Assembly: GCA_963663275.1 (NCBI GenBank)
Contig: OY760183.1
Coordinates: forward strand, 1,083,683-1,115,682
Reading direction: 5' to 3'
Length of the DNA stretch: 32,000 nt
From: Chloroflexota bacterium
GTDB lineage: Bacteria; Chloroflexota; UBA11872; VXOZ01
The notes under the pieces were generated by a model, which saw only the letters and a program-made list of their open reading frames with translations, made no database searches and was not told the origin of the DNA. Both the position numbers and the translations under genes were made by a program. Positions within the stretch are counted from its first letter, which is position 1; each line of letters starts with the position of its first letter. This document shows positions 1,956 through 31,287 of this stretch, one piece after another.

Positions 1956-1993
1956 CCCCCTCTCCCCGGGGAGAGGGCCGGGGTGAGGGGGAC
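1956..1993. repeat. REP-like hairpin, family E (ccccctctcccc-nnn-ggagagggccggggtgagggggac)
   Basis: Hairpin ccctctcccc/ggggagaggg followed by ccggggtgaggg. The same element recurs at 26148-26186 and 26412-26450, with a partial copy at 26374-26398. Confidence 0.8.
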
Positions 1994-2047
1994 ATCGTTG
2001 TCGCATTGAACGCAATGAGAATGAAGCCTACGCTCGCTTCTCCCGTA

Positions 2048-2069
2048 GTGCAGGTTTGTAACCTGCGAC
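2048..2069. repeat. REP-like hairpin, family B (gcaggtt-tgt-aacctgc)
   Basis: 7-bp stem with 3-nt loop. The same hairpin occurs more than 10 times in 13203-14150. Confidence 0.85.
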
Positions 2070-2114
2070 TTACGCAAGGTCAATCCAGTCCGTTCTTGTT
2101 TACCTTGCTCCGGC

Positions 2115-2136
2115 GGGGGACAAGCCCCCGCGCTAC
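2115..2136. repeat. REP-like hairpin, family A (gggggacaagcccccgcgctac)
   Basis: Stem gcggggg/cccccgc with loop acaag and a gcgctac tail. At least 15 copies in the window, all intergenic (13167, 13399, 13514, 13629, 13749, 14233, 14316/15523, 18394, 29418, 29534, 31114, 31257 and others). Confidence 0.9.
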
Positions 2137-2166
2137 GCAAACGCGGCGGCGTTGCGCGCAGGCCCA

Positions 2167-3963
2167 CTAGTGGTAGCGGACTTCCACCGCGCTGGCGCCC
2201 GCGCCAAAGTCGGCTGCCGCCAGCGCATAGGCCGTCCCGGAAACGCTGCGCCGGGTGAGCGGCAGCGGCTCCCCGCCGCACTGTACCCCGGCAATCTCTC
2301 TGCCGTCGAACCGCGCGGGCAGGAGGAGCGTGCCGCCGGGCAGTCCGTCTCGCGCCTCGAGCGTCAGGCTCAAGATGCCGCCGTCCGCGTCCCACCGCTG
2401 TTCATGCAGCAGCGCGGCGCGCCGTTGTTCGTTGAACGCGCACCAGGCGTCGGTGCTGGGCATGGGCAGTTCGCATTGCGCCGCGTACTTCAGGACCGCC
2501 TCGAACCAGCCCGCCGTGCGGATGAACTGGCCGGTCTTCACCTTAATGCCGGTGGCGTAGATCGGGTGAAAGTAGAAGTGCGCCACGGTGTGGTAGCGTT
2601 CGATCGCGGCGTCGATGTACTCCTTGGAAACGGCGATGGCTTGCTCCTCGCTGAGCGGCGGCAGGAAACTCTTGTCCACCAGCACGTAGTCGTCGCAGAA
2701 GAGGGTCTCCTGCTCGAAAAGCTCGATGAATTCGCCGCGTTCGTCGATGAAACGCATGGGCAAGCCGCTGCCGGTCAGGTAGCCGTATTGCTGGTGGTCG
2801 CCGGCGCGGTAGTTGGTGTCCATGCGGAAACCGGCGTCGGCCAGCGCCTGGGCGGTTTCCGCCCAGCCCGGCCAGATGACGCAGTGGTGGCGGGTGGTCT
2901 TGGGCGGATAGCCGTAGCGATCCTCGAAGAGCGCCGCTTCCTCGAAAATGCGCTGGCGCATCTGCTCTACGGTCGGCTTGCCTGAGTGCCAGACGTGGGG
3001 TCCCGCCGAGTGGCCGCGCCGCCGGTAGTCGCGCTCCATCGCCGGGGTGAGGTGCTTCAGGTGCTCCTCCATCAGATAGACGGTGTACTCGCCGCCGTGG
3101 GCTTCCACCATATTGGTGTACCATTCCATCTGCGGGCGGGTCATGCCGTCGCTGTCGCCGTTGACGAGCACGATTGCCGGCGCGGCGTTGGGGTAGTGCC
3201 AGAGACGCGCCAGCGGGGCCTGTGGCGCGCTCGCCCACTCAAGGATGCGCACGAGCAGTCGCTGCTGCAGGTCGGCTTGGGGCAGGTCGAGCAGCGTGCG
3301 GTCGCGGTAGCCGACGAAGAGATCGCTGGGGCAAAACAGGCCGTCGCCGTCGGCATCGGGAGTGGGGCCGGTGCTGGCCTGCTCGCGGCGGCCCTGGTGA
3401 AAGAGGACGGTGGACGACGCCAGGTCATAGGTGAAGACGGCGAAACGCCCCGCGCCGTAGTTGCCGGTGACAATCGCCGGATATGGGAGCGCCCAGTCGC
3501 GTCCGCCCAGCCAGGCGAGCACGCGCTCGCGGCCGCCGTAATCAGCGTACACATCGGCCGCGCCGTGAAACTGCATGAAGTCGCCGAGCGCGGAGAACCA
3601 GAGGGGATGGTCTCGCTCCGGCGCGACGTAGGCTTCGTTGGCCGTGCGCCGCTGCTTGCCCTCGATGCCAAGTTCGGCTGCGGTCTCGGCGGAAGGACGC
3701 AGGAAGACCACCGGCGTGCCCCGCTCCAGCGCCGCCAGCGCCGCCGCTTCCGCGCCGGTATCCGCGCCGCAGGGCGCCACGATCACCGCCTGCCGCGCTT
3801 GGAGTGAATCCACAGTCAGCGGCGACTGCCGCGCGTTCCGCTCTTCCGCGCCGGTCAGCCCCTCGGCAAAGAGCATCTCCAACACGTAACGCCCAAACGG
3901 GGCTGTCTCAGGATCGTAACAGCACAACGGCGGCAGGAACGTATCGTGCTTCTTCGATGCCAT
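2167..3963 (-). CDS. Hypothetical 598-aa protein with a central NodB/polysaccharide-deacetylase-like motif pair
   Basis: Full-length ORF with G/C-rich third positions. AGGAGAG sits 9 nt upstream of the ATG at 3963. Motifs VLVNGDSDGMT and HSAGPHVWH resemble the NodB D-D and H-x-x-x-H metal motifs. The N-terminal ~250 aa and the C-terminal beta-rich ~100 aa are unassigned. Confidence 0.75.
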   Translation of the reverse strand: MASKKHDTFLPPLCCYDPETAPFGRYVLEMLFAEGLTGAEERNARQSPLTVDSLQARQAVIVAPCGADTGAEAAALAALERGTPVVFLRPSAETAAELGIEGKQRRTANEAYVAPERDHPLWFSALGDFMQFHGAADVYADYGGRERVLAWLGGRDWALPYPAIVTGNYGAGRFAVFTYDLASSTVLFHQGRREQASTGPTPDADGDGLFCPSDLFVGYRDRTLLDLPQADLQQRLLVRILEWASAPQAPLARLWHYPNAAPAIVLVNGDSDGMTRPQMEWYTNMVEAHGGEYTVYLMEEHLKHLTPAMERDYRRRGHSAGPHVWHSGKPTVEQMRQRIFEEAALFEDRYGYPPKTTRHHCVIWPGWAETAQALADAGFRMDTNYRAGDHQQYGYLTGSGLPMRFIDERGEFIELFEQETLFCDDYVLVDKSFLPPLSEEQAIAVSKEYIDAAIERYHTVAHFYFHPIYATGIKVKTGQFIRTAGWFEAVLKYAAQCELPMPSTDAWCAFNEQRRAALLHEQRWDADGGILSLTLEARDGLPGGTLLLPARFDGREIAGVQCGGEPLPLTRRSVSGTAYALAAADFGAGASAVEVRYH

Positions 3964-7299: not shown

Positions 7300-7436
7300 G
7301 TCTTATCGCTCGTTTTCGCCATCAGTGTGCACCTATAGTATCATGGCCAAAACAGTGCGCAAGGTAACAGCCGAACAGGAGCGTCGTCCAGAGAAAGGGC
7401 GTTCGCCAGGGCTTGAAGAAGAATCGTCGAGAGGTG

Positions 7437-7841
7437 ATGAAGGTGCGCGTTAAGCTGCCCCACAGGGAGTTGTCCGACGCTTTCGTGGCGTTGAGCCATG
7501 CAGCCGCCGAGGCTGAAGAAGAGGGCTTTCAAATACCCTCTGACTTAGCAGTAGTCAATGCGAAACGCCTGTTGCATGAGATGTACGCGATTGCGCCGCA
7601 ACGCTTCGAGGTCTACCCCACACCTGACGCCGAGATCGCTATTCGCGCTTTGGCTCCCGGTAGATCGGTCATAGTGCTGTGCGAATCGGATGGAGAAGCG
7701 TTGTGCTTGGCCAACCTCAACAATGGCCGCAGACGCAAGAGATTTGATTCCGTGGATGCCCTGCCGGACCGCTTCTTGAAGAGAGCCCTCTTGGACTTGA
7801 AATTGGGGATATCTAGTCCTCACGGAGCACATTGCCCATGA
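7437..7841 (+). CDS. Hypothetical protein (about 134 aa), orphan; its stop overlaps the start of the downstream MR/MLE gene
   Basis: ORF 7413-7841. ATG at 7437 follows GAGAGG, but the start is uncertain (TTG 7413, GTG 7443 are alternatives). TGA 7839-7841 overlaps ATG 7838-7840 of the next gene (ATGA). Lower G+C (35/60 at 7561-7620). No recognisable domain. Confidence 0.45.
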   Translation: MKVRVKLPHRELSDAFVALSHAAAEAEEEGFQIPSDLAVVNAKRLLHEMYAIAPQRFEVYPTPDAEIAIRALAPGRSVIVLCESDGEALCLANLNNGRRRKRFDSVDALPDRFLKRALLDLKLGISSPHGAHCP

Positions 7842-8977
7842 AAATCGTCGACATGCACGTCCGCGCCTTCACCTACCCCTCCCGCATCGTGCGGGATACC
7901 GAAGGCCACACCCATCCCGGCCCGGAGCATGAAGCCACCCAATCGCTGCTCACCGTTGTCGCGGACGACGGCGCGGTCGGCTATTGCTTTGGCGCGCCGA
8001 GCCCCGGCGTGTTGGAGGACGTCATCAAGCCCGCCATCATGGGCGAAGACCCCATGTACCGCGAGCGCATCTGGAAGACCCTGCACCACTGGCAGCGCAT
8101 GTCCCGCGATTTGACCGACCGGGCGCTGGGCGCGGTGGACATGGCGATTTGGGACCTGGTGGGCCGCGCCCTGGGGCAGCCGGTCTACAAGCTGCTGGGC
8201 GCGACCCGCGACAAAGTGCCGGCCTACGCCAGCACCATGTGCGGCGACGAAATCGCGGGCGGCCTGAGCACGCCGGAGGAGTACGGCGCGTTCGCACTGC
8301 AATGCAAGGAGCGCGGCTATCCGGCTTTCAAGCTGCACACCTGGATGCCGCCGATCGCCTGGGCGCCGGACCCGAAGATGGACATCGCCGCCTGCGCCGC
8401 CGTGCGCGAGGCCGTGGGCGCTGAGATGGACCTCATGCTCGACTGCTACCACTTCTACAGCCGCGCGGATGCGCTATACATCGGCCGGGCGTTGGAAGAC
8501 CTCGACTACTACTGGTTCGAGGAGCCGATGGACGAGTTCAGCACGTCATCGTACGTCTGGCTGGCCGACCAGCTTGACATTCCCGTGGTCGGGCCGGAAA
8601 CCGCCGACGGCAAGATGTACACCCGCGCCGAGTGGCTTGCCCGGGGCGCGGCCGACATCAGCCGGGGCGGCGTGAGCGACGTGGGCGGCATTACGCCCCT
8701 GATGAAGGTCGTCCACCTCTGCGAGGCGTTCAACGTGCAGATGGAGGTGCACGGCGGCGGCCCCGGCAACCTGCACGCCCTCTGCGCCATGAACTACCCG
8801 GGCAAGTACTACGAACGCGGCCTTCTGCACCCCCACATCGACTACGAGGAAGTGGAACCCTGGCTCAACCGCAAAACCGACCCCATGGACAACACGGGCA
8901 ACGTCCACGTCTCCCAAGAGCCGGGCCTCGGCTGGGACATCGATTGGGACTACATCGACGCCCACACGGTGACTTGA
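7838..8977 (+). CDS. Mandelate racemase/muconate lactonizing enzyme family protein (enolase superfamily; sugar-acid dehydratase/cycloisomerase-like)
   Basis: ORF 7832-8977; ATG at 7838 with GGAG 11 nt upstream. It has the N-terminal capping domain and barrel motifs FKLHTW, MLDCYHFY and YWFEEP typical of MR/MLE members. Confidence 0.88.
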   Translation: MKIVDMHVRAFTYPSRIVRDTEGHTHPGPEHEATQSLLTVVADDGAVGYCFGAPSPGVLEDVIKPAIMGEDPMYRERIWKTLHHWQRMSRDLTDRALGAVDMAIWDLVGRALGQPVYKLLGATRDKVPAYASTMCGDEIAGGLSTPEEYGAFALQCKERGYPAFKLHTWMPPIAWAPDPKMDIAACAAVREAVGAEMDLMLDCYHFYSRADALYIGRALEDLDYYWFEEPMDEFSTSSYVWLADQLDIPVVGPETADGKMYTRAEWLARGAADISRGGVSDVGGITPLMKVVHLCEAFNVQMEVHGGGPGNLHALCAMNYPGKYYERGLLHPHIDYEEVEPWLNRKTDPMDNTGNVHVSQEPGLGWDIDWDYIDAHTVT

Positions 8978-9364: not shown

Positions 9365-11839
9365 CTAAGCAGGCTGCGGTGCCGGCGTGGGGGTAGGCGT
9401 AGGAATAGGCGTGGGGGTAGGCGTGGGGGTAGGCGTCGGTGTCGGCGTGGGACTGGCCGGACACGTTACCGAGATGGAGGTCGTGGTTTGTGGGCCCCAG
9501 GCGTCGCGATAGGTCTCACCATCGCCCTTTGCCACGCCGTTGACGTTGAACGTGAGCGTCTGGCCGCCTTGCGAGGCTGAGCACACGGTGGCCCCGTAGT
9601 CCTTCGAATAGGGTTGGCCCTTCTTGAAGTCTCCGGTCCGGCCGGTCTGGGTATTGAAGAGATTGCCGCTCGTCTTTACTTCCGCAACCCCGCTTGCGAG
9701 CGTTACCGTGAGCGTGACCGTTATCGCGTCCCCACTGGGACTGCTCGACAGGCTGAGCGAGGGCGAGGGCGGCAGCGCTAGCGTCGGGGTAGGCGTGGGC
9801 GTGGGCGGTGGCTCCCCAGGGCAGGTTACCGAGATGGTGGACGTGCTTGGCGAACTCCAAGCGTCACGGTAGATTACGCCGTCGCCATTCGCCACCACGT
9901 TGACGGTGAAGTCAAGCGTCTGGCCGGCTTGTCCGGATGAGCACACGTGTTCCGAAAAGCTTGCCGAATACGTGCCTTGGTTATTGCCCCGCGACCAGCC
10001 GCTCGTGAAGAGATTGCCGCTGAACCGTATCCCGTCAACCCCGTTCTCGAACGTCACCGACGCGATGACCATCATAGAGAGGCCGTTATTGGGGACGCTC
10101 GACGTAGTGCTGGAGAGGGACAGGGAAGGCGCGGATGGCAGCGGCAGTGTGGGCGTCGGCACGGGCGTTGGCGTGGCGCCGCCGGGGCAGGTTACCGAGA
10201 TGGTGGACGTGCCCTGCGGGCCCCAGGCGTCGCGATAGATCGCGCCGTCGCCCTTTGCCACGCCGTTGACGGCAAAGCTCAGCGTCTGGCCGCCTTGCGC
10301 GGCGGTGCAAACCTGGGCTGTGTAGTCTACGGAATACGGCTGACCCTTCAGGAAGTTCCCGGTCCGGCCGGTCTGGGTGTTGAAGAGGTTGCCGCTGGTC
10401 CGCGCTTCCGCTACCCCGTATGGAATCGTTACCGTGAGCGTAATCGTTATGTCGTTCTCATTGGGACTACTCGACAGGCTGAGTGAGGGCGACGGCGGCA
10501 GCGGCAATGTTGTGGGCGTAGGCGAACCACCCGGCGTTGGCGTGGTCTGCGGGACGGTCGGCGTGGTCTGCGGTACCGTTGGCGTGACTGATGGCGCCGG
10601 TGTTGGGCCTCCAGGCGTGGGCGTTGACCCAGGATCCACCGAGGGCGGCGGCGCGGGCCCCGTTCCAGGCGGGGGCGCCGGCAGCGCCGTGGTCGGGAAC
10701 GGACACGTCACGGTGACACCAATGTAATCGCTCCAGTCCGACCAGGCCTGCCGGTAGGTTTCACCGTCGCCAAACGCGCGCAGGCGCAGGAAGTGCGTAG
10801 CCGTCTCGCCGGCCTGGCTGGGCAGGCAGACCAAGGCGGACGTAGGCGGCGTCTGCTCGCTCGTCCACGTGTGGCTGCCGGCAATGCCGTCGGTTTCAAT
10901 CGAGGCCACGCCTTCCGGCCAGGAATAGCTCCACCGCACTTCCACCACGCCTTTGTCCGACCACGCGTTGTAGTTCTCCACGTGAATGCCGTAGTCAAGC
11001 GATACCGCCGGGACTGGCGGCGGCGGCAGCCCGCCGTCGGCCGGCGTCGGCGTCAGCGCGGGCGTGGGAATATGCCCCGACGCGTCGGGGCAGGACGCCG
11101 TGTGCGTGAGCAAGCGCAACTGGCCCGGGCCGGAGCGGTAGGTCACGCCATCGCCCGCGGAGGTGAGAATGACCGCAATCGCCAGCGACTGATCCGCGTC
11201 CGCCGGAGGGCAGACATAGGCATGGTAACTCTCGGCGTTGCCGTCGCTTTCCAGCAGCGAGAACGGCGCGCCGCCCGACCAGGATATGCTGCCGCTGGTG
11301 TCTGACGGCCACTGCACGGAAAAGACGACTTCGACGAGCAGGTCCTGCCGGCCGGAAGCGCCGCTGCCAATGCTCCCCGCGGGAGCGGGCGCTAACGGCA
11401 GTACGGGAGTCGGCGTTGCCTGGGGTTCCTGCGCGTCTGAATCGCTGTCTGGAACGTAATCAGGTTCCTGCGTGCCTGAATCGCTGCCGGCCACGTAATC
11501 GGGTTCCCACGGGAACCGCTCGCTATTCAGGCGCTGCTGGAGTCCATACGGGCCGTTGACCCAGGTGTAGTGGCCGTCGGTGAAGGCCGTATAGTTGTCG
11601 GACTTGCGCCAGACCATGAGCCCGCCGGTGGTGGACTGGGTGCTGTCGCCGTTGGCGCTATGCTGCTCGTTGCTCAAGCAGTCGCCCACAGTGTCATGGC
11701 CGATGAGGTCGCGCAGGGTCTTGAAACCAAGACGGAATTCGCAATCGGCAGCCGTTGCCGACGACACGACAAGCGCGGCAAACGCGAAACCAAGCAAAAT
11801 TCCGACAACAGAACGTCGTAGCCGGGCCGGCAGAAACAT
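9365..11839 (-). CDS. Secreted 824-aa repeat protein: signal peptide, N-terminal Cys-containing domain, five ~100-aa Cys-pair modules joined by Pro/Thr linkers, (PT)n tail
   Basis: ORF 9365-11890; the internal ATG at 11839 gives MFLPARLRRSVVGILLGFAFAALVVSSATA|ADCEF (signal-peptide-like). Modules each contain ...VC...GDG..YR.AW...TCP. The C-terminus is PTPTPTPTPTPTPIPTPTPTPAPQPA. Confidence 0.85.
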   Translation of the reverse strand: MFLPARLRRSVVGILLGFAFAALVVSSATAADCEFRLGFKTLRDLIGHDTVGDCLSNEQHSANGDSTQSTTGGLMVWRKSDNYTAFTDGHYTWVNGPYGLQQRLNSERFPWEPDYVAGSDSGTQEPDYVPDSDSDAQEPQATPTPVLPLAPAPAGSIGSGASGRQDLLVEVVFSVQWPSDTSGSISWSGGAPFSLLESDGNAESYHAYVCPPADADQSLAIAVILTSAGDGVTYRSGPGQLRLLTHTASCPDASGHIPTPALTPTPADGGLPPPPVPAVSLDYGIHVENYNAWSDKGVVEVRWSYSWPEGVASIETDGIAGSHTWTSEQTPPTSALVCLPSQAGETATHFLRLRAFGDGETYRQAWSDWSDYIGVTVTCPFPTTALPAPPPGTGPAPPPSVDPGSTPTPGGPTPAPSVTPTVPQTTPTVPQTTPTPGGSPTPTTLPLPPSPSLSLSSSPNENDITITLTVTIPYGVAEARTSGNLFNTQTGRTGNFLKGQPYSVDYTAQVCTAAQGGQTLSFAVNGVAKGDGAIYRDAWGPQGTSTISVTCPGGATPTPVPTPTLPLPSAPSLSLSSTTSSVPNNGLSMMVIASVTFENGVDGIRFSGNLFTSGWSRGNNQGTYSASFSEHVCSSGQAGQTLDFTVNVVANGDGVIYRDAWSSPSTSTISVTCPGEPPPTPTPTPTLALPPSPSLSLSSSPSGDAITVTLTVTLASGVAEVKTSGNLFNTQTGRTGDFKKGQPYSKDYGATVCSASQGGQTLTFNVNGVAKGDGETYRDAWGPQTTTSISVTCPASPTPTPTPTPTPTPTPIPTPTPTPAPQPA
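9440..10540. repeat. Intragenic tandem triplication (about 360-366 bp units) inside the secreted repeat protein gene
   Basis: The marker gttaccgagatgg recurs at 9465, 9825 and 10191 (spacing 360 and 366 bp). Units 1 and 3 encode nearly identical modules (NLFNTQTGRTG[D/N]F.KGQPYS.DY); the middle unit has diverged. Confidence 0.85.
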
Positions 11840-11970
11840 CGCCGTAATCTCTCTCACAACCGATTCCGATGCAGTATGGGCGGGAGGCATTGCGCCCCAT
11901 AGCGCATTACCGTGTGCGAAACTCTACCAAAATGCTAGCGAACTGTCTAGATTGAGAGAGCCGTCAGAGG

Positions 11971-12077: not shown

Positions 12078-13103
12078 CTACCACGACGTGAGGCCGGTGT
12101 AGAGGTCTGGCGGGATGCGCACGACTGCGCCGGTGCGGGTGGACTCTTCGCAGGCCAGGGCGACGGCGACGATGTAGCGTCCCCAGAGTCCGTCTACCGG
12201 CGGCGCGGTATCGGACTGGATGGCGTCTATCAGGCCGGACAGTTCCAGCGCGAAAGCGCCCGCATAGTCCTGCCCGGCGGCAATGGATTGCTCGACGTAT
12301 TCCGCGCCCGCGCTGAGCCAGAGGCGGTCGTCGCGGGTTTGCGCGCGCACGCTTGCCCGCGTGCCGATGAGTTCCACCTCGTTGCGCTCCGGCCCTTCTT
12401 GCGAATAGCCGGTGTGGTGCAGCGTGGCGTGGGCGCCGTTGGCGAAGTCCAGCCACGCCAGGCCGGTATCGTCGGCGTTCTGGCCGACCATCGGATTGCT
12501 CACCCAGGCGCGCACGGCGGTTATTGGGCTGCCGATGAGCCACGTGAGGCGGTCGAGCATGTGCACGCCGTTCATGTACCACATGCCGCCGCCGCCTTCC
12601 GCGCGGTTCAGAAACCAGGGCGGGCGGTTGGCCAGGTCGAACGTGCGGTACCAGGTGTCGGTGGCAAAGACGATGTTGCCTAGCTTTCCCTCTTGAATGA
12701 GCCGCTTGGCCGCCAGGCCGGCGGGTAGAAAATGCTCCGTGTGCGCCACCAGCAGTTTGACGCCGGCCTCCTCAGCAGCGGCGATGATGGCGTCGCAGTC
12801 GGCTATCGTCATCGCCATGGGCTTCTCCAAGAAGACGTGCTTGCCGGCCGCGCACGCGGCGAGCGTGACCTCCGTGTGCAGGTAGTGCGGCAGCCCGATC
12901 ATGACGATGTCCACCTGCGGATCCGCGAGGAGATCGGTGTGGCTGGCGTACGCGGCGCAGGGGTGCGCGCGCGTGAACTGCCGCCGCCGCTCTTCATCCG
13001 GCTCGGCAAGCGCCGCTAACTGTGCTTCCGGCACGGCGCCAATCGCCTGCGCGTGTCCGCCGCTCACCCGGCTCGCGCCGATGATGCCTACACCGTATGC
13101 CAT
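12078..13103 (-). CDS. Gfo/Idh/MocA-family NAD(P)-dependent oxidoreductase
   Basis: ORF 12078-13109; ATG at 13103 lies 8 nt downstream of AGGAG. Rossmann N-terminus VGIIGASRVSGGHAQAI and the family motif VFLEKPMA are present. Confidence 0.9.
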   Translation of the reverse strand: MAYGVGIIGASRVSGGHAQAIGAVPEAQLAALAEPDEERRRQFTRAHPCAAYASHTDLLADPQVDIVMIGLPHYLHTEVTLAACAAGKHVFLEKPMAMTIADCDAIIAAAEEAGVKLLVAHTEHFLPAGLAAKRLIQEGKLGNIVFATDTWYRTFDLANRPPWFLNRAEGGGGMWYMNGVHMLDRLTWLIGSPITAVRAWVSNPMVGQNADDTGLAWLDFANGAHATLHHTGYSQEGPERNEVELIGTRASVRAQTRDDRLWLSAGAEYVEQSIAAGQDYAGAFALELSGLIDAIQSDTAPPVDGLWGRYIVAVALACEESTRTGAVVRIPPDLYTGLTSW

Positions 13104-13166
13104 GTACACCGCTCCTCGCTATCTGCCATGCCGCATGTCAACCGCAACCTCGACACCGGCCCAATC

Positions 13167-13797
13167 GTAGCGCGGGGGCTTGTCCCCCGCCTCTTCGCGC
13201 CGGCGCAGGTTTGTAACCTGCGCTACCGGACATCTGGTTACAAACCTGCGGTATGGGACCTCTGGTTACGAACCTGCACAACCGGACACGTGGTTACAAA
13301 CCTGCGGTACGGGATCTCTGGTTTCGAACCTGGGCTACCGGATGCTCGGCGGCTATGATCCGATTCTCGTCAATCACCATCACGCCTGCCGCCAACACGT
13401 AGCGCGGGGGTTCATCCCCCGCCTCTTCGCACCGGCGCAGGTTACAAACCTGCGCTACCGGATACTTGCAAGACCCAATTCTCGTCTATCGCCACTACGC
13501 CCGCCGCCAACACGTAGCGCGGGGGCTTGTCCCCCGCCTCTTCACCCCGCCGCAGGTTACAAACCTGCGCTACCGGACACTTGCAAAACCCGATTCTCAT
13601 CTATCGCCACCACGCCTGCCGCCAACACGTAGCGCGGGGTCTTGTCCCCCGCCTCTTCGCACCAGCGCAGGTTATAAACCTGCGCTACCGGATGCTCGGC
13701 GGCCATGCCCCGATTCTCGTCAATCGCCATCACGCCTGCCGCCAACACGTAGCGCGGGGGTTCATCCCCCGCCTCTTCGCGGGCAAGCCGCTCTGGG
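13167..13797. repeat. Higher-order tandem array 1: composite REP units (family A + family B, reverse orientation) with 115-120 bp period
   Basis: Units start at 13167 (a long 232-bp first unit with extra family-B hairpins), 13399, 13514, 13629 and 13749 (truncated). The whole unit is conserved, with two alternating tail subtypes (tgctcggcgg... versus acttgcaa...). Confidence 0.9.
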
Positions 13798-13866
13798 CAC
13801 TGGCCTTCCACTCGCTGAGCCGCTTTGCCTTCAAGAGTCACCGGCCTGACCGCAAAGCCTACACTA

Positions 13867-14155
13867 CCGGGATACGTCACAGGTTACAAACCTGTGCTAC
13901 CTATGCCCCTGCCCAACGACATCGATGGGTTGCGCCACCGGCCGCGCGCCACGTTCCGGTAGCGCAGGTTTGTAACCTGCGACAACGGTTGCCCCTGGCT
14001 AGCGACATCGATGCGTTGCATTGCCGGCCGCGCGTCACGCTCCGGTAGCGCAGGTTTGTAACCTGCGACAACGGTTACCCCTGGCTACCGACATCGATGC
14101 GTTGCATTACCGGCCGCGCGCCACGTTCCGGTAGCGCAGGTTTGTAACCTGCGCA
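13867..14155. repeat. Higher-order tandem array 2: 86-89 bp units built around the family B hairpin (forward orientation)
   Basis: Units start at 13867, 13956 and 14042, plus a partial unit at 14128. Unit: ccggtagcgcaggtttgtaacctgcgacaacggtt.cccctggcta.cgacatcgatgcgttgcatt.ccggccgcgcg.cacg.t. Confidence 0.9.
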
Positions 14156-14232
14156 AGGGTGGGGTCGATGTGTGGGCGCCGTTTTATCATGCCAAGTCGC
14201 CGGTGATCGGTTTTCGCGCAACATACTTCGGC

Positions 14233-14295
14233 GGGGGACAAGCCCCCGCGCTACGCCTGTGAGACAGTATCGGGAAAGAGCCGCCGCGCTACGAC
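14233..14295. repeat. Extended family A unit (hairpin + cgcctgtgagacagtatcgggaaagagccgccgcgctacg)
   Basis: A near-identical extended unit is found at 15523-15585, on the far side of the IS. Confidence 0.8.
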
Positions 14296-14326
14296 GATGT
14301 TTCTTCTCAGTCAGGCGGGGGACAAG

Positions 14327-15526
14327 CCCCAATGCTGTCGCATTAACCGCTGAAGCGGAGTGCGCGGGGCAAGGAAGCGGCAAGCGTTCGCAGCCAGGAG
14401 ACGCGAGTGCTGCTAGCTGGACGTAGTTCCTCCAAGAGCTGTGCGAGCACGGCCACGATGCTGGCGACCACCAAGGTGAGCCAGACGGCGGCACGGCTGT
14501 ATCCAATGGGGCGGATTGCGCCCAACACATGCTTCAGCCAGCGAAAGAACAACTCGATCTGCCAGCGCTTGCGGTAGAGCCACACCACCTCTGGAGCGCT
14601 CAGGTCGTGACGGTCGGTGATGAAGTGGTGCGTTTTCCCCTGCGCCGTGCGGCTGACCACCAGGCGCATCTCTGCTAAGACCGCGCCGTTGCGGTTGTTG
14701 GCGCTGCCCAGCACGATCACCGCATCCCGCACCACCACGTCTCCTGCCGGCGTGCGCGCGCCGGTCACGGCACGCTCGCGCACCACGCAGTAGGCAGCCT
14801 GCGGGTGCAGGCGCGTCACGAAGTGCACACCTGCCTCCCGCATCTGCGCAAAGACCCGATGCGCGTAGTAGCCCAAGTCTAGCAAGAGCGTCCAGCCCTG
14901 CCACCGCGCCAGACCCCAACGCTTGAACGCCGTCACGTCATTCGCGTCCGCCAACGTCACCTGTAACCGCGTCGGCACCTGTGTGTCCACGGCATATGCC
15001 ATCTGCAGCCGTACTCCCGCCTCATGCCCTTGGTGCACGCTCCACGGACTACACGCCGCGCTCAGCGCCAGAAAACTGCCGTCCACCGCCACCACCCGCC
15101 GTACGTGCGCCGGCCCACGTGCTTGCACCTGCCGCGCCAACACCTCCCACGCCGCCGTAAAACACGCCAACGGCCGCGTCTGGGATGAACGTGCCAACTG
15201 ACTGTAACTTATGCCCGACGCTAAACCCAACCGCCGTCGCCACACCACATCACCCATCTGCAGCCCATGGCTTTGCCGCAGGCTCCCACTCCCACTCAGC
15301 ACGTGACCAAGCAGCATCCCCACATGCGCTCGCACCGAAAAATGCTTGCGATAGCGATCCGCTCCCCTCACCCGTGCTGCCGCCGTCAGCGCCGGCTCCA
15401 ACTCACGCCATAGCCGCCGTCCTACTCCTACCGTCTGTGCTACCATTAGCCAGGGCTCCTTTGTAAGATATATCGCTCATTACCTTACTAAAGTAGCCCC
15501 TTCACTTTAATGCGACAACATTGGGG
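14327..15526 (-). mobile_element. IS4-family insertion sequence (about 1.2 kb) inserted into a family A REP hairpin
   Basis: Terminal inverted repeats (cccc)aatgctgtcgcattaa at 14327-14346 and ttaatgcgacaacatt(gggg) at 15507-15526, with 1 mismatch. The flanks ...gcgggggacaagcccc and ggggacaagcccccgcgctac... rebuild one intact REP. A single DDE transposase ORF lies inside. Confidence 0.85.
14343..15446 (-). CDS. IS4-family DDE transposase
   Basis: 367-aa ORF. Candidate D (VVAVDGSF), D (LLLDLGYYA) and E within the YREK signature YRKRWQIELFFRWLK (Y-x2-R-x3-E-x6-K). The stop codon lies inside the left terminal repeat. Confidence 0.9.
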   Translation of the reverse strand: MVAQTVGVGRRLWRELEPALTAAARVRGADRYRKHFSVRAHVGMLLGHVLSGSGSLRQSHGLQMGDVVWRRRLGLASGISYSQLARSSQTRPLACFTAAWEVLARQVQARGPAHVRRVVAVDGSFLALSAACSPWSVHQGHEAGVRLQMAYAVDTQVPTRLQVTLADANDVTAFKRWGLARWQGWTLLLDLGYYAHRVFAQMREAGVHFVTRLHPQAAYCVVRERAVTGARTPAGDVVVRDAVIVLGSANNRNGAVLAEMRLVVSRTAQGKTHHFITDRHDLSAPEVVWLYRKRWQIELFFRWLKHVLGAIRPIGYSRAAVWLTLVVASIVAVLAQLLEELRPASSTRVSWLRTLAASLPRALRFSG

Positions 15527-15585
15527 ACAAGCCCCCGCGCTACGCCTGTGCGGCAGAATTGGGAAAAGGCCCCTGCGCTACGGGT
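15523..15585. repeat. Extended family A unit (right half of the REP split by the IS)
   Basis: ggggacaagcccccgcgctacgcctgtgcggcagaattgggaaaaggcccctgcgctacg aligns with 14233-14295. Confidence 0.8.
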
Positions 15586-15653: not shown

Positions 15654-15689
15654 GAGAGGCCGTTTCCCGCGCCCAGGAAACGGCCTCTC
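15654..15689 (-). terminator. Intrinsic-terminator-like hairpin downstream of the yeeE/yeeD-like operon
   Basis: 14-bp GC-rich stem gagaggccgtttcc / ggaaacggcctctc with an 8-nt loop, 24 nt after the TAG at 15713-15715. On the minus-strand transcript it is followed by UUUCUAU. Confidence 0.65.
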
Positions 15690-15712: not shown

Positions 15713-16000
15713 CTATTCCGAAACGTTCAACGCCGCCAGTTGCTCCTGCAGATTGGCCAGGATGTCTTGCGGCTTGGCGACCTTCTCGGACTTGCGCAGT
15801 GTCAGCCGCCACTCCGAGTTGGCGGCGTCCTCGATGGTCGTCTCGTAGCCGTTCTTGGCCGCTTCCCACGGAATGGTGCCCAGGGCCGGCGCGTGGTCGG
15901 TGAGCACCTCCAGGTTCTCGTCGCCGTCCAGCTTCTTTAGCGCCTCGGCGGTTTTCATCATGGGATACGGGCAGATTTCACCGCGCACGTCGATTTTCAT
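15713..16000 (-). CDS. yeeD: TusA/YeeD-family sulfur-carrier protein
   Basis: 95 aa. The N-terminal KIDVRGEICPYPMMKTAEAL carries the C-P-x-P active-site motif of the TusA/SirA family. AGGAG lies 9 nt upstream. It sits directly downstream of a YeeE/YedE gene, as in the yeeE-yeeD pair. Confidence 0.85.
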   Translation of the reverse strand: MKIDVRGEICPYPMMKTAEALKKLDGDENLEVLTDHAPALGTIPWEAAKNGYETTIEDAANSEWRLTLRKSEKVAKPQDILANLQEQLAALNVSE

Positions 16001-29360: not shown

Positions 29361-29555
29361 CCGTAAGGGCAAGTGTACCCGTAGGGGCAGGCCTCGTGCC
29401 TGCCCGTGTCAAGAGGCGGGGGACAAGCCCCCGTGCTACGGCTTACCGGAAAGGGCAGGTTTACCCGTAGGGGCACGACATGTCGTGCCCCTACTTGTTG
29501 ACAAGCCCCCGCGCTACGACGATGCGACCGGGCGGGGGACAAGCCCCCGCGCTAC
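29361..29555. repeat. Cluster of REP elements (two family C variants plus three family A copies)
   Basis: gtaggggcaggcctcgtgcctgcccgtg (29381-29408). gggggacaagcccccgtgctac (29418-29439). Perfect 28-bp palindrome gtaggggcacgacatgtcgtgcccctac (29467-29494). Degenerate A copy (29495-29517). A copy (29534-29555). Confidence 0.85.
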
Positions 29556-29671
29556 CAGGAGAAGACAAACAGGGCGGCGTGGAGAGCCGGTCGGAGTGCC
29601 GCCACCGGGGTTAGCTGGTAGAATAGAGACCGTAATTCCCCTTTCGGATTCTTTGCACACCGAGGAAAGCA

Positions 29672-31113: not shown

Positions 31114-31278
31114 GGGGCACAAGCCCCCGCGCTACGGCTTGAACTGGATTACCACAAGGGCGGGGAAGGCTACCGGTCCCCGTAGGGGCGGTTCGCGAAC
31201 CGCCCCTACCGCGTGGTGCGATGCGGGGGGCAAGTTCTCGCGCTGCGGTGCGATGCGGGGGACAAGCCCCCGCGCTAC
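31114..31278. repeat. Cluster of REP elements (family A x3 including one degenerate copy, family C x1)
   Basis: ggggcacaagcccccgcgctac (31114-31135). cgtaggggcggttcgcgaaccgcccctac (31181-31209). Degenerate ggggggcaagttctcgcgctgcgg (31225-31248). gggggacaagcccccgcgctac (31257-31278). Confidence 0.85.
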
Positions 31279-31287
31279 GGTGATGGG

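Follow-up and report, generated by a model that had tools for sequence, protein, structure and literature searches.

The window analysed here is a 32,000-nucleotide stretch from a Chloroflexota bacterium (assembly GCA_963663275.1, contig OY760183.1, positions 1,083,683 to 1,115,682), with position 1 at its first letter. At 13137-14160 it carries a non-coding block of tandem arrays made from two hairpins, A and B, within a larger cluster of repetitive extragenic palindromes (REPs). The cluster occupies the spacer between a tusA-like gene (15713-16000, minus strand; Pfam TusA) and a GFO/IDH/MocA oxidoreductase gene (12078-13103, minus strand; Pfam GFO_IDH_MocA), whose start codon is 64 nt away from the first A; the tusA-like gene is the upstream same-strand neighbour. 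The original prediction, made from the letters of this DNA alone, had ended the block at 14155. The repeats go on beyond that point, through 14231-14292 and an A hairpin split by an insertion sequence (IS; hairpin halves at 14314-14330 and 15523-15543), to 15581. With the IS left out, the cluster spans about 1.2 kb, in which 14 A/B REPs can be recognised. We interpret the block as a cluster of GTAG-tagged REPs resembling the bacterial interspersed mosaic elements (BIMEs) of the BIME-2 type, which expanded within a spacer where there was at first just one REP and is most likely selfish or neutral; we assign this reading a probability of roughly 80%.

The two hairpins are distinct sequences that share one end. 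The consensus of A is GTAGCGCGGGGGCTTGTCCCCCGC / GCGGGGGCTTGTCCCCCGC, or GTAGCGC-GGGGG-CTTGT-CCCCC-GC when divided into its parts, and that of B is GGTAGCGCAGGTTTGTAACCTGCG / GCGCAGGTTACAAACCTGCGC, or GGTAGCGC-AGGTT-TGT-AACCT-GCG. A forms a 7-bp GC stem with a 5-nt loop and B a 9-bp stem with a 3-nt loop, both being present in every predicted fold. Both start with GTAGCGC, the 5' GTAG tag of REP elements of the type linked to REP-associated tyrosine transposases (RAYTs), and this heptamer is kept in nearly all full copies, the exceptions being GTAGTGC at 2045 and GTAGCAC at 13900 and 29439. The window contains 14 A-like copies where chance predicts 0.03, placed at five intergenic regions of the map of open reading frames (ORFs), and 13 strand-specific matches to B at 10 sites against 0.00 expected. 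The stems of A and B show some compensatory base pairs and about equally many broken ones, among copies that were chosen by similarity. The B at 13877-13900 has one such compensatory change, from G:C to A:T.

The cores of A and B lack complementarity: pairing is confined to the outer 7 bp, GTAGCGC with GCGCTAC, and predicted folds of the A/B doublet consist of two separate hairpins. A classical REPIN, in which two inverted copies of one REP form one long hairpin, was therefore rejected as the identity of the cluster, because A and B lack mutual core pairing. Neighbouring A and B copies are paired in a preferred manner: 21 of 31 such pairs in the sample are head-to-head and B is the usual head-to-head partner of A. 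Pairs of A with A are most commonly head-to-tail (32 of 44 in the sample), and one further intergenic region of the window, at 31215-31282, has a small head-to-tail A pair with a period of 32 (2.1 copies). At 29380-29560, an A copy is broken after GTAGCGCGGGGGCTTGTC by an insert of about 75 bp that holds a second GTAG-tagged family, consisting of the perfect palindrome GTAGGGGCACGACATGTCGTGCCCCTAC and its relative GGGCAGGCACGAGGCCTGCCCCTAC; these palindromes indicate that the genome has at least one further REP family.

Array 1 (13137-13780) comprises five A hairpins and four head-to-head A/B dimers, and was recovered by Tandem Repeats Finder (TRF) and as repeat family D1, with 5 copies in register. 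Each unit consists of a tail of 55-60 nt, an A, a linker of 12-13 nt (CTCTTCGCACCG) and an inverted B. A points rightward and B leftward, so that the GTAG tags face outward, the arrangement termed a head-to-head dimer by Di Nocera et al. (PMC3733652). The A copies lie on the plus strand at 13167-13190, 13399-13422, 13514-13537, 13629-13652 and 13749-13772, and the GTAG of each stands exactly at a unit start given in the original prediction. The B copies, with their GTAG on the minus strand, face them at 13203-13226, 13435-13458, 13550-13573, 13665-13688 and 13877-13900, the last being the dimer partner of the final A (13749) across a 105-nt spacer. Beyond the first unit the periods are 115-120 bp, and TRF reports a period of 115, 3.6 copies, 86% matches and a score of 608 for 13360-13780. 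The predicted succession of tail types (1, 2, 2, 1) was also borne out: the type-1 tails (13343-13398 and 13693-13748) are 93% identical and the type-2 tails (13459-13513 and 13574-13628) 89% identical, the type-2 units agreeing at about 90%. Unit identities in array 1 range from 0.75 to 0.90, with an inter-unit divergence of 10-25%. This a-b-b'-a' pattern, taken together with the unit identities, points to several duplication rounds, after which the copies diverged.

The unit starts and tail order of array 1 had been described correctly, but the gap of 232 bp that separates units 1 and 2 conceals a feature that had been overlooked. Within the first unit, a 28-bp sub-array (13208-13342) holds degenerate half-B hairpins in 4.6 copies, detected by TRF at periods 28 and 56 and as repeat families D3 and D5. 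The first B of array 1 (13203-13226) has its 3-nt loop flipped, reading TGT for ACA relative to the CTAC tag, as if an inversion had occurred inside the palindrome. Array 2 (13904-14160, plus strand; repeat family D4) consists of three 86-bp units that are 84-88% identical, for which TRF gives a period of 86, 3.0 copies, 90% matches and a score of 416. Each unit is a locus-specific spacer of 59-63 nt followed by a B in the orientation opposite to that of the array-1 B, with GTAG starting at 13959, 14045 and 14131. Three of the four predicted array-2 units are accordingly of this spacer-plus-B form; the remaining predicted start concerns the B at 13877-13900, which has the array-1 orientation with CTAC on its 3' side. 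To the right, 14123-14292 (plus strand, by nhmmer) contains a B, a 77-nt spacer, an inverted A (14231-14254), a degenerate 17-mer resembling an IS end and a degenerate half-A named C (14272-14292), which appears to be a scar. Both arrays are real by the repeat-finder check that had been proposed.

Array-internal ORFs gave no Pfam match in a scan of the window ORFs, and ORFs crossing the arrays have a third-position GC content (GC3) of 0.54-0.70, compared with 0.76-0.90 in real genes. On these two grounds the block is non-coding, in agreement with the original statement that it contains no credible coding sequence.

The arrays appear to have been built from local DNA. In the window and about 0.87 Mb of related loci, the array-1 tails and array-2 spacers match at this locus only, and the A and B cores are the sole dispersed parts of the units. 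The final 30 nt of each tail (GTCAATCGCCATCACGCCTGCCGCCAACAC) align in register with the unique flank at 13137-13166 (GTCAACCGCAACCTCGACACCGGCCCAATC) that precedes the first A, with 20/30 identities counted by eye in the family D1 alignment. This alignment suggests that the duplicated unit carried flanking DNA along with it, and the restriction of tails and spacers to this locus, combined with the derivation of part of the tail from adjacent unique sequence, identifies local duplication as the origin of the arrays. The junction between tail and A had zero matches in a metagenome scan, and a plasmid collection contained no match to the region. Arrays that contain A recur: TRF found 16 in the window and the sampled loci, the window's included, with periods of 32-284 bp and 1.8-4.8 copies.

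The orthologous spacers of four relatives (L110, L112, L113 and L114) place this cluster in a series. All four share the synteny of the tusA-like gene, and their oxidoreductases are 79-85% identical to that of the window, the nearest orthologue being 85% identical at the protein level. Their spacers hold zero to four REPs: the L114 spacer (395 bp) has no REP, that of L113 (278 bp) has one A, that of L110 (502 bp) has an A, a B, an IS-end motif and a half-A, and that of L112 (710 bp) has one A plus two to three inverted A copies, whereas the window spacer of 2609 bp holds the full cluster. In four of the five genomes an A stands 150-170 nt past the tusA stop codon, just beyond a GC-rich hairpin followed by a T-rich run that lies directly after tusA in all five genomes compared (15654-15689, minus strand, in the window). 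This hairpin is probably the operon terminator; since a promoter and terminator scan flagged nothing in the region, the hairpin included, we infer its function from sequence comparison. The A that is split by the IS is the window's ancestral A, about 170 nt downstream of tusA. Neither the 115-bp nor the 86-bp array is present in any of the four orthologous spacers, which speaks against a conserved function and favours fast growth particular to this lineage.

Outside this locus, hairpin A is dispersed and associated with RAYT genes. The exact A 24-mer occurs in more than 108 stretches of a species-representative genome collection, almost all of them from Chloroflexota metagenome-assembled genomes (MAGs), a count that does not include the window's own genome; the best nucleotide matches (OZ244814.1 and OZ253463.1) are 76-88% identical. 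A regular expression for the HUH and Tyr motifs, together with E. coli RayT, retrieved no RAYT among ORFs of at least 80 aa. A profile of three sequences (E. coli RayT and two Chloroflexota plasmid homologues), applied to ORFs of at least 50 aa, identified a RAYT gene in the related genome L040 at 7371-7865. This gene scores 94.6 bits against NCBIfam NF047646, 'REP-associated tyrosine transposase' (cut-off 80), and 37.7 bits against Pfam Y1_Tnp, matches the structure of E. coli TnpA-REP (PDB 4ER8) at E = 1.8e-6, and carries the HUH (NHAHL) and YxxxNP motifs. It is bracketed on both sides by inverted A copies with GTAG outward. An in-frame TGA at L040 7554-7556 splits the gene where all homologues have Trp (AQRQV-W-KLG), so that it is either a pseudogene or affected by a sequencing error; a conserved stop codon was rejected on account of that Trp, the 102-aa proteins being alternative start calls.

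An intact homologue of 165 aa, P0243, is encoded in L117 and is 72% identical to the L040 gene. Three tandem A copies lie upstream of it (period 116, 2.3 copies), and downstream two inverted A copies fall within a 208-bp tandem duplication (3406-3823) that takes in the final ~90 nt of the RAYT ORF. REP A and its neighbouring DNA have thus been tandem-duplicated even at a REPtron, that is, a cognate RAYT between inverted A copies, an arrangement found in both of these related genomes. The duplication process was here able to copy coding DNA beside a REP. A GFO/IDH/MocA gene also lies downstream of the L117 RAYT, and a meaningful link between RAYT and oxidoreductase was considered and rejected: its protein is 30% identical to that of the window, which marks it as a paralogue and the match as coincidental. 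On an unrelated Chloroflexota plasmid (CP069395.1), a RAYT gene is followed by three tandem head-to-head REP dimers with flanking sequence, in a period of about 141 bp and with different hairpins. Judged by its position beside these genes, hairpin A is a genuine REP of the RAYT-associated type. The original assignment to REP/BIME-type elements is thereby upheld by the GTAG tags, the dispersal of the hairpins, the extragenic position of A and the inverted A copies flanking RAYT in relatives.

The A 24-mer or close local variants also occur in MAGs assigned to other phyla: L025 (OZ251518.1, Poribacteria), L007 and L103 (Deltaproteobacteria), L011 and L044 (Anaeromyxobacteraceae), L048 (Nitrospirae) and L051 (LCP-89). 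The Poribacteria block (53% GC) holds five A copies whose loop is CCTGT, together with two members of a sister family, and in the Deltaproteobacteria blocks A forms head-to-head dimers. These occurrences could reflect horizontal spread of the REP/RAYT system or mis-binned contigs.

The second mobile component of the cluster is an IS of the IS4 family (14331-15522, minus strand; 1192 bp) with inverted repeats AATGCTGTCGCATTAA and TTAATGCGACAACATT. Its transposase gene (14343-15446) matches Pfam DDE_Tnp_1 and NCBIfam NF033592 (155.9 bits, cut-off 115). The IS is inserted in an A hairpin whose 13-bp core (GGGGACAAGCCCC) has been doubled, with one copy on each side: in the left half of the split A (14314-14330, minus strand) it spans 14318-14330, and in the right part (15523-15581, minus strand) it spans 15523-15535, with CGCGCTAC to 15543, and a second C follows at 15561-15581. 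In the window and sampled loci, the IS-end motif abuts a half-A in all 14 of its occurrences. In several genomes the same IS ends bound an element of about 160 bp, flanked by a duplicated A core and laid out as left repeat, ~45 nt, B, 44-nt spacer, inverted A, one G and right repeat. The copy in L058 has both terminal repeats and a GGGGACAAGCCC target duplication. At other loci, therefore, the ~160-bp element has the IS-matching terminal repeats and target duplication that define a MITE (miniature inverted-repeat transposable element).

One MITE-like copy lies in the window itself at 1989-2156 (plus strand; nhmmer E = 5.6e-28), with a diverged left end, a B, a 45-nt spacer and an inverted A. 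The B-A pair originally noted at 2048-2136 is genuine (2045-2136); it is part of this composite of about 170 bp and is not, as had been thought, an instance of single scattered hairpins. A profile of the composite also matches 14123-14284 at E = 1e-18 over model positions 61-190, so that this segment resembles the right part of the composite, and matches each array-1 dimer at E ~1e-10 to 1e-12, these being B-A doublets in which the 44-nt spacer is cut to 12 nt. The array-2 spacer scored 17 against the left arm of the composite, compared with a shuffle mean of 12.2 (sd 2.1, maximum 21), which is not significant, and on this basis we rejected homology between the composite and the tails and spacers of the arrays.

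Comparable arrangements are known from several bacteria. E. coli BIME-2 elements are tandem y/z2 REP pairs with a short linker and flanking linkers, in strain-variable copy number (Bachellier; Ton-Hoang et al. 2012, PMC3333891), and TnpA-REP can make such tandem copies in vitro (PMC3333891); at the E. coli rayT locus (L109) our own TRF run found a 101-bp period in 2.0 copies. The window shows the BIME-2-type layout, with A, linker, inverted B and tail repeated as four dimers plus a fifth A. The two systems are alike in the alternation of two GTAG-tagged REP types, the short linker within pairs, the longer flank, the tandem units and a content that varies between genomes. They differ in that the hairpins are unrelated and belong to different phyla, that the tails of the window are longer (55-60 nt) and locus-specific, and that its cluster also holds an IS and MITE-like pieces.

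Within the GTAG superfamily, REPs including those of a Chloroflexi species occur as dimers reiterated in tandem with flanking DNA (PMC3733652); GTAG repeats have been reported in Chloroflexi, and in Thermomicrobium roseum the GTAG-23 elements are grouped into large blocks (Di Nocera et al. 2013, PMC3733652). The window shares with these elements the GTAG at one end of a short GC-rich palindrome and the preference for head-to-head dimers. By description, GTAG-23 is confined to few loci, whereas A is dispersed, with its 14 copies spread over five intergenic regions in the 32 kb. Pseudomonas fluorescens SBW25 has ordered tandem REPIN clusters that include flanks, with up to four REPINs and one REP over more than 700 bp (Bertels & Rainey 2011, PMC3116915); in P. 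fluorescens, REPs also form clusters of twelve, and clusters adjoin RAYT genes (PMC3116915). Ordered tandem REP doublets with flanking sequence are common to both, but A and B are two distinct REPs and pair through their outer 7 bp alone. REP-targeting ISs are known from five families and include IS1397, ISKpn1, IS621, ISPpu9/10 and the IS4-family ISRm22 (Tobes & Pareja 2006, PMC1525189). The IS of the window likewise has all its sampled ends in a REP hairpin and belongs to the IS4 family, like ISRm22; it is unlike them in that its 13-bp target duplication spans the whole hairpin core and in that a short derivative with the same ends carries the target A together with B.

Taken together, the block fits the known REP/BIME kind in every respect tested, and its arrangement is of a known kind, with no new mechanism or element class, but unusually large. 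The original prediction had considered such arrays unusual even for REP/BIME-type elements. This is correct as regards size, since 14 A/B REPs lie in 1.3 kb here and at most six per locus in about 115 comparison loci, which makes the cluster exceptional and the largest in the sample. It does not hold for the kind of arrangement, because tandem REP dimers with flanking sequence are known and because A-containing arrays recur across the sample.

The history we favour would have begun with insertion into the A hairpin of the IS, and probably also of the ~160-bp non-autonomous derivative carrying B and A. The A/B dimer and adjacent DNA would next have been duplicated in tandem, through RAYT cleavage and strand transfer or through replication slippage. 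Unequal recombination may then have enlarged the array, and the copies would have diverged by 10-25%. The amplification process that had been proposed is supported by this combination of local tandem duplication and a hairpin-targeting IS. Any effect of the cluster on tusA or oxidoreductase transcripts would be a by-product.

Several points weigh against this interpretation. The RAYT that the original prediction had proposed to seek elsewhere in the genome was found in the related L040 and L117, and none was found in the window; among 120 of 145 matches listed, no homologue was assignable to the home genome. The hairpin that flanks RAYT is A, and B is a candidate substrate. The sequence itself does not tell the candidate duplication mechanisms apart. 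The link between array 2 and the composite consists only of the shared B and the 14123-14292 match, because the spacer resemblance is not significant. Finally, the cluster is far bigger than any other in the sample, a size that neutral growth does not specifically predict.

A possible but tentative elaboration is a self-seeding loop, in which the IS4-family IS and its ~160-bp derivative insert into A and RAYT or recombination duplicates the products, the window being a runaway case; the occurrence of the 24-nt REP in Poribacteria, Deltaproteobacteria, Nitrospirae and LCP-89 MAGs would then imply horizontal spread of the system. Because the derivative carries REP A, its own target, in addition to B, each of its insertions would create new targets, and the combination of a hairpin-specific IS with a target-carrying derivative suggests self-reinforcing cluster growth.

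The BIME-2-like reading must also be weighed against a function in cis, with the arrays acting as a structured leader or 3' untranslated region by which the transcripts of tusA and the oxidoreductase gene would be stabilised, terminated or tuned, or else as a platform for protein binding. The cluster does lie between co-oriented genes, read-through RNA would bear many stable hairpins, and one B copy has the compensatory stem change described above; two papers report effects of REPs on mRNA decay and termination (PMC3733652; bioRxiv 10.64898/2026.03.23.713779). The comparative and structural evidence points the other way. None of the four orthologous spacers has the arrays, and one of them is entirely free of REPs; a conserved terminator-like hairpin already precedes the cluster. 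Rfam returned nothing at gathering thresholds and, at E<=1, just chance hits on inverted repeats. Fold stability relative to shuffles gave z values of -1.5, -3.1, +0.2 and -0.7 for array-1 and array-2 units, so that four of the five folded stretches are no better than about -3, the units of array 2 being no different from chance; the one exception is the 28-bp sub-array, at z -3.49 with no shuffle as stable. Long-range pairings in a 1.16-kb fold simply reflect the inverted B and A copies. A functional role of the cluster is unsupported, we regard this explanation as improbable, and the original suggestion of a functional locus, whether structured RNA or protein-binding platform, found no backing in the orthologous spacers or in any RNA family match.

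Less probable still is the independent insertion of each unit at a hot spot, as a composite mobile element of ~115 or 86 bp (a REPIN or MITE). A mobile composite with B and A that targets A hairpins does exist, and several relatives show the spacer to be an insertion hot spot. Against this, the window and the related loci have the tails and spacers at no other place, the units stand in strict register with a tail that shares ancestry with the adjacent unique flank, and the array units have neither terminal inverted repeats nor target duplications. The remaining identities considered can practically be dismissed: a CRISPR-like array, suggested by the regular 27-nt palindromic repeat and ~59-nt spacers of array 2, is contradicted by 'spacers' that are 84-88% identical to one another and by the lack of any cas gene or domain in the window; a repeat-protein gene, suggested by the long ORFs that cross the region, by their lack of coding GC3 bias and Pfam hits; and an assembly artefact, by units that differ by 10-25%, which collapse or inflation of identical repeats would not yield, and by a 100% identical copy of the oxidoreductase protein (P0001) encoded on a 3.53-Mb contig.

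The cluster extends the REP/RAYT/BIME picture, drawn mainly from enterobacteria and pseudomonads, to uncultured Chloroflexota. A single spacer provides a natural series from no REP to one, to few, to a 1.2-kb cluster, showing how such a cluster is built by flank-carrying tandem duplication and a hairpin-specific IS. The region is recombination-prone and hard to assemble, and the REP, IS and MITE-like consensus sequences could be used for masking or as markers in MAGs.

The surrounding genes of the window are of housekeeping type, comprising shikimate pathway, ThiF/JAB/Rrf2 and YeeE/TusA genes. On the minus strand at 9365-11890 lies an 841-aa ORF that has no Pfam hit, an atypical GC content by codon position (0.59/0.61/0.77) and, within it, tandem repeats of 12 bp and 21 bp; at this place the orthologous loci L110 and L112 carry other genes or none.

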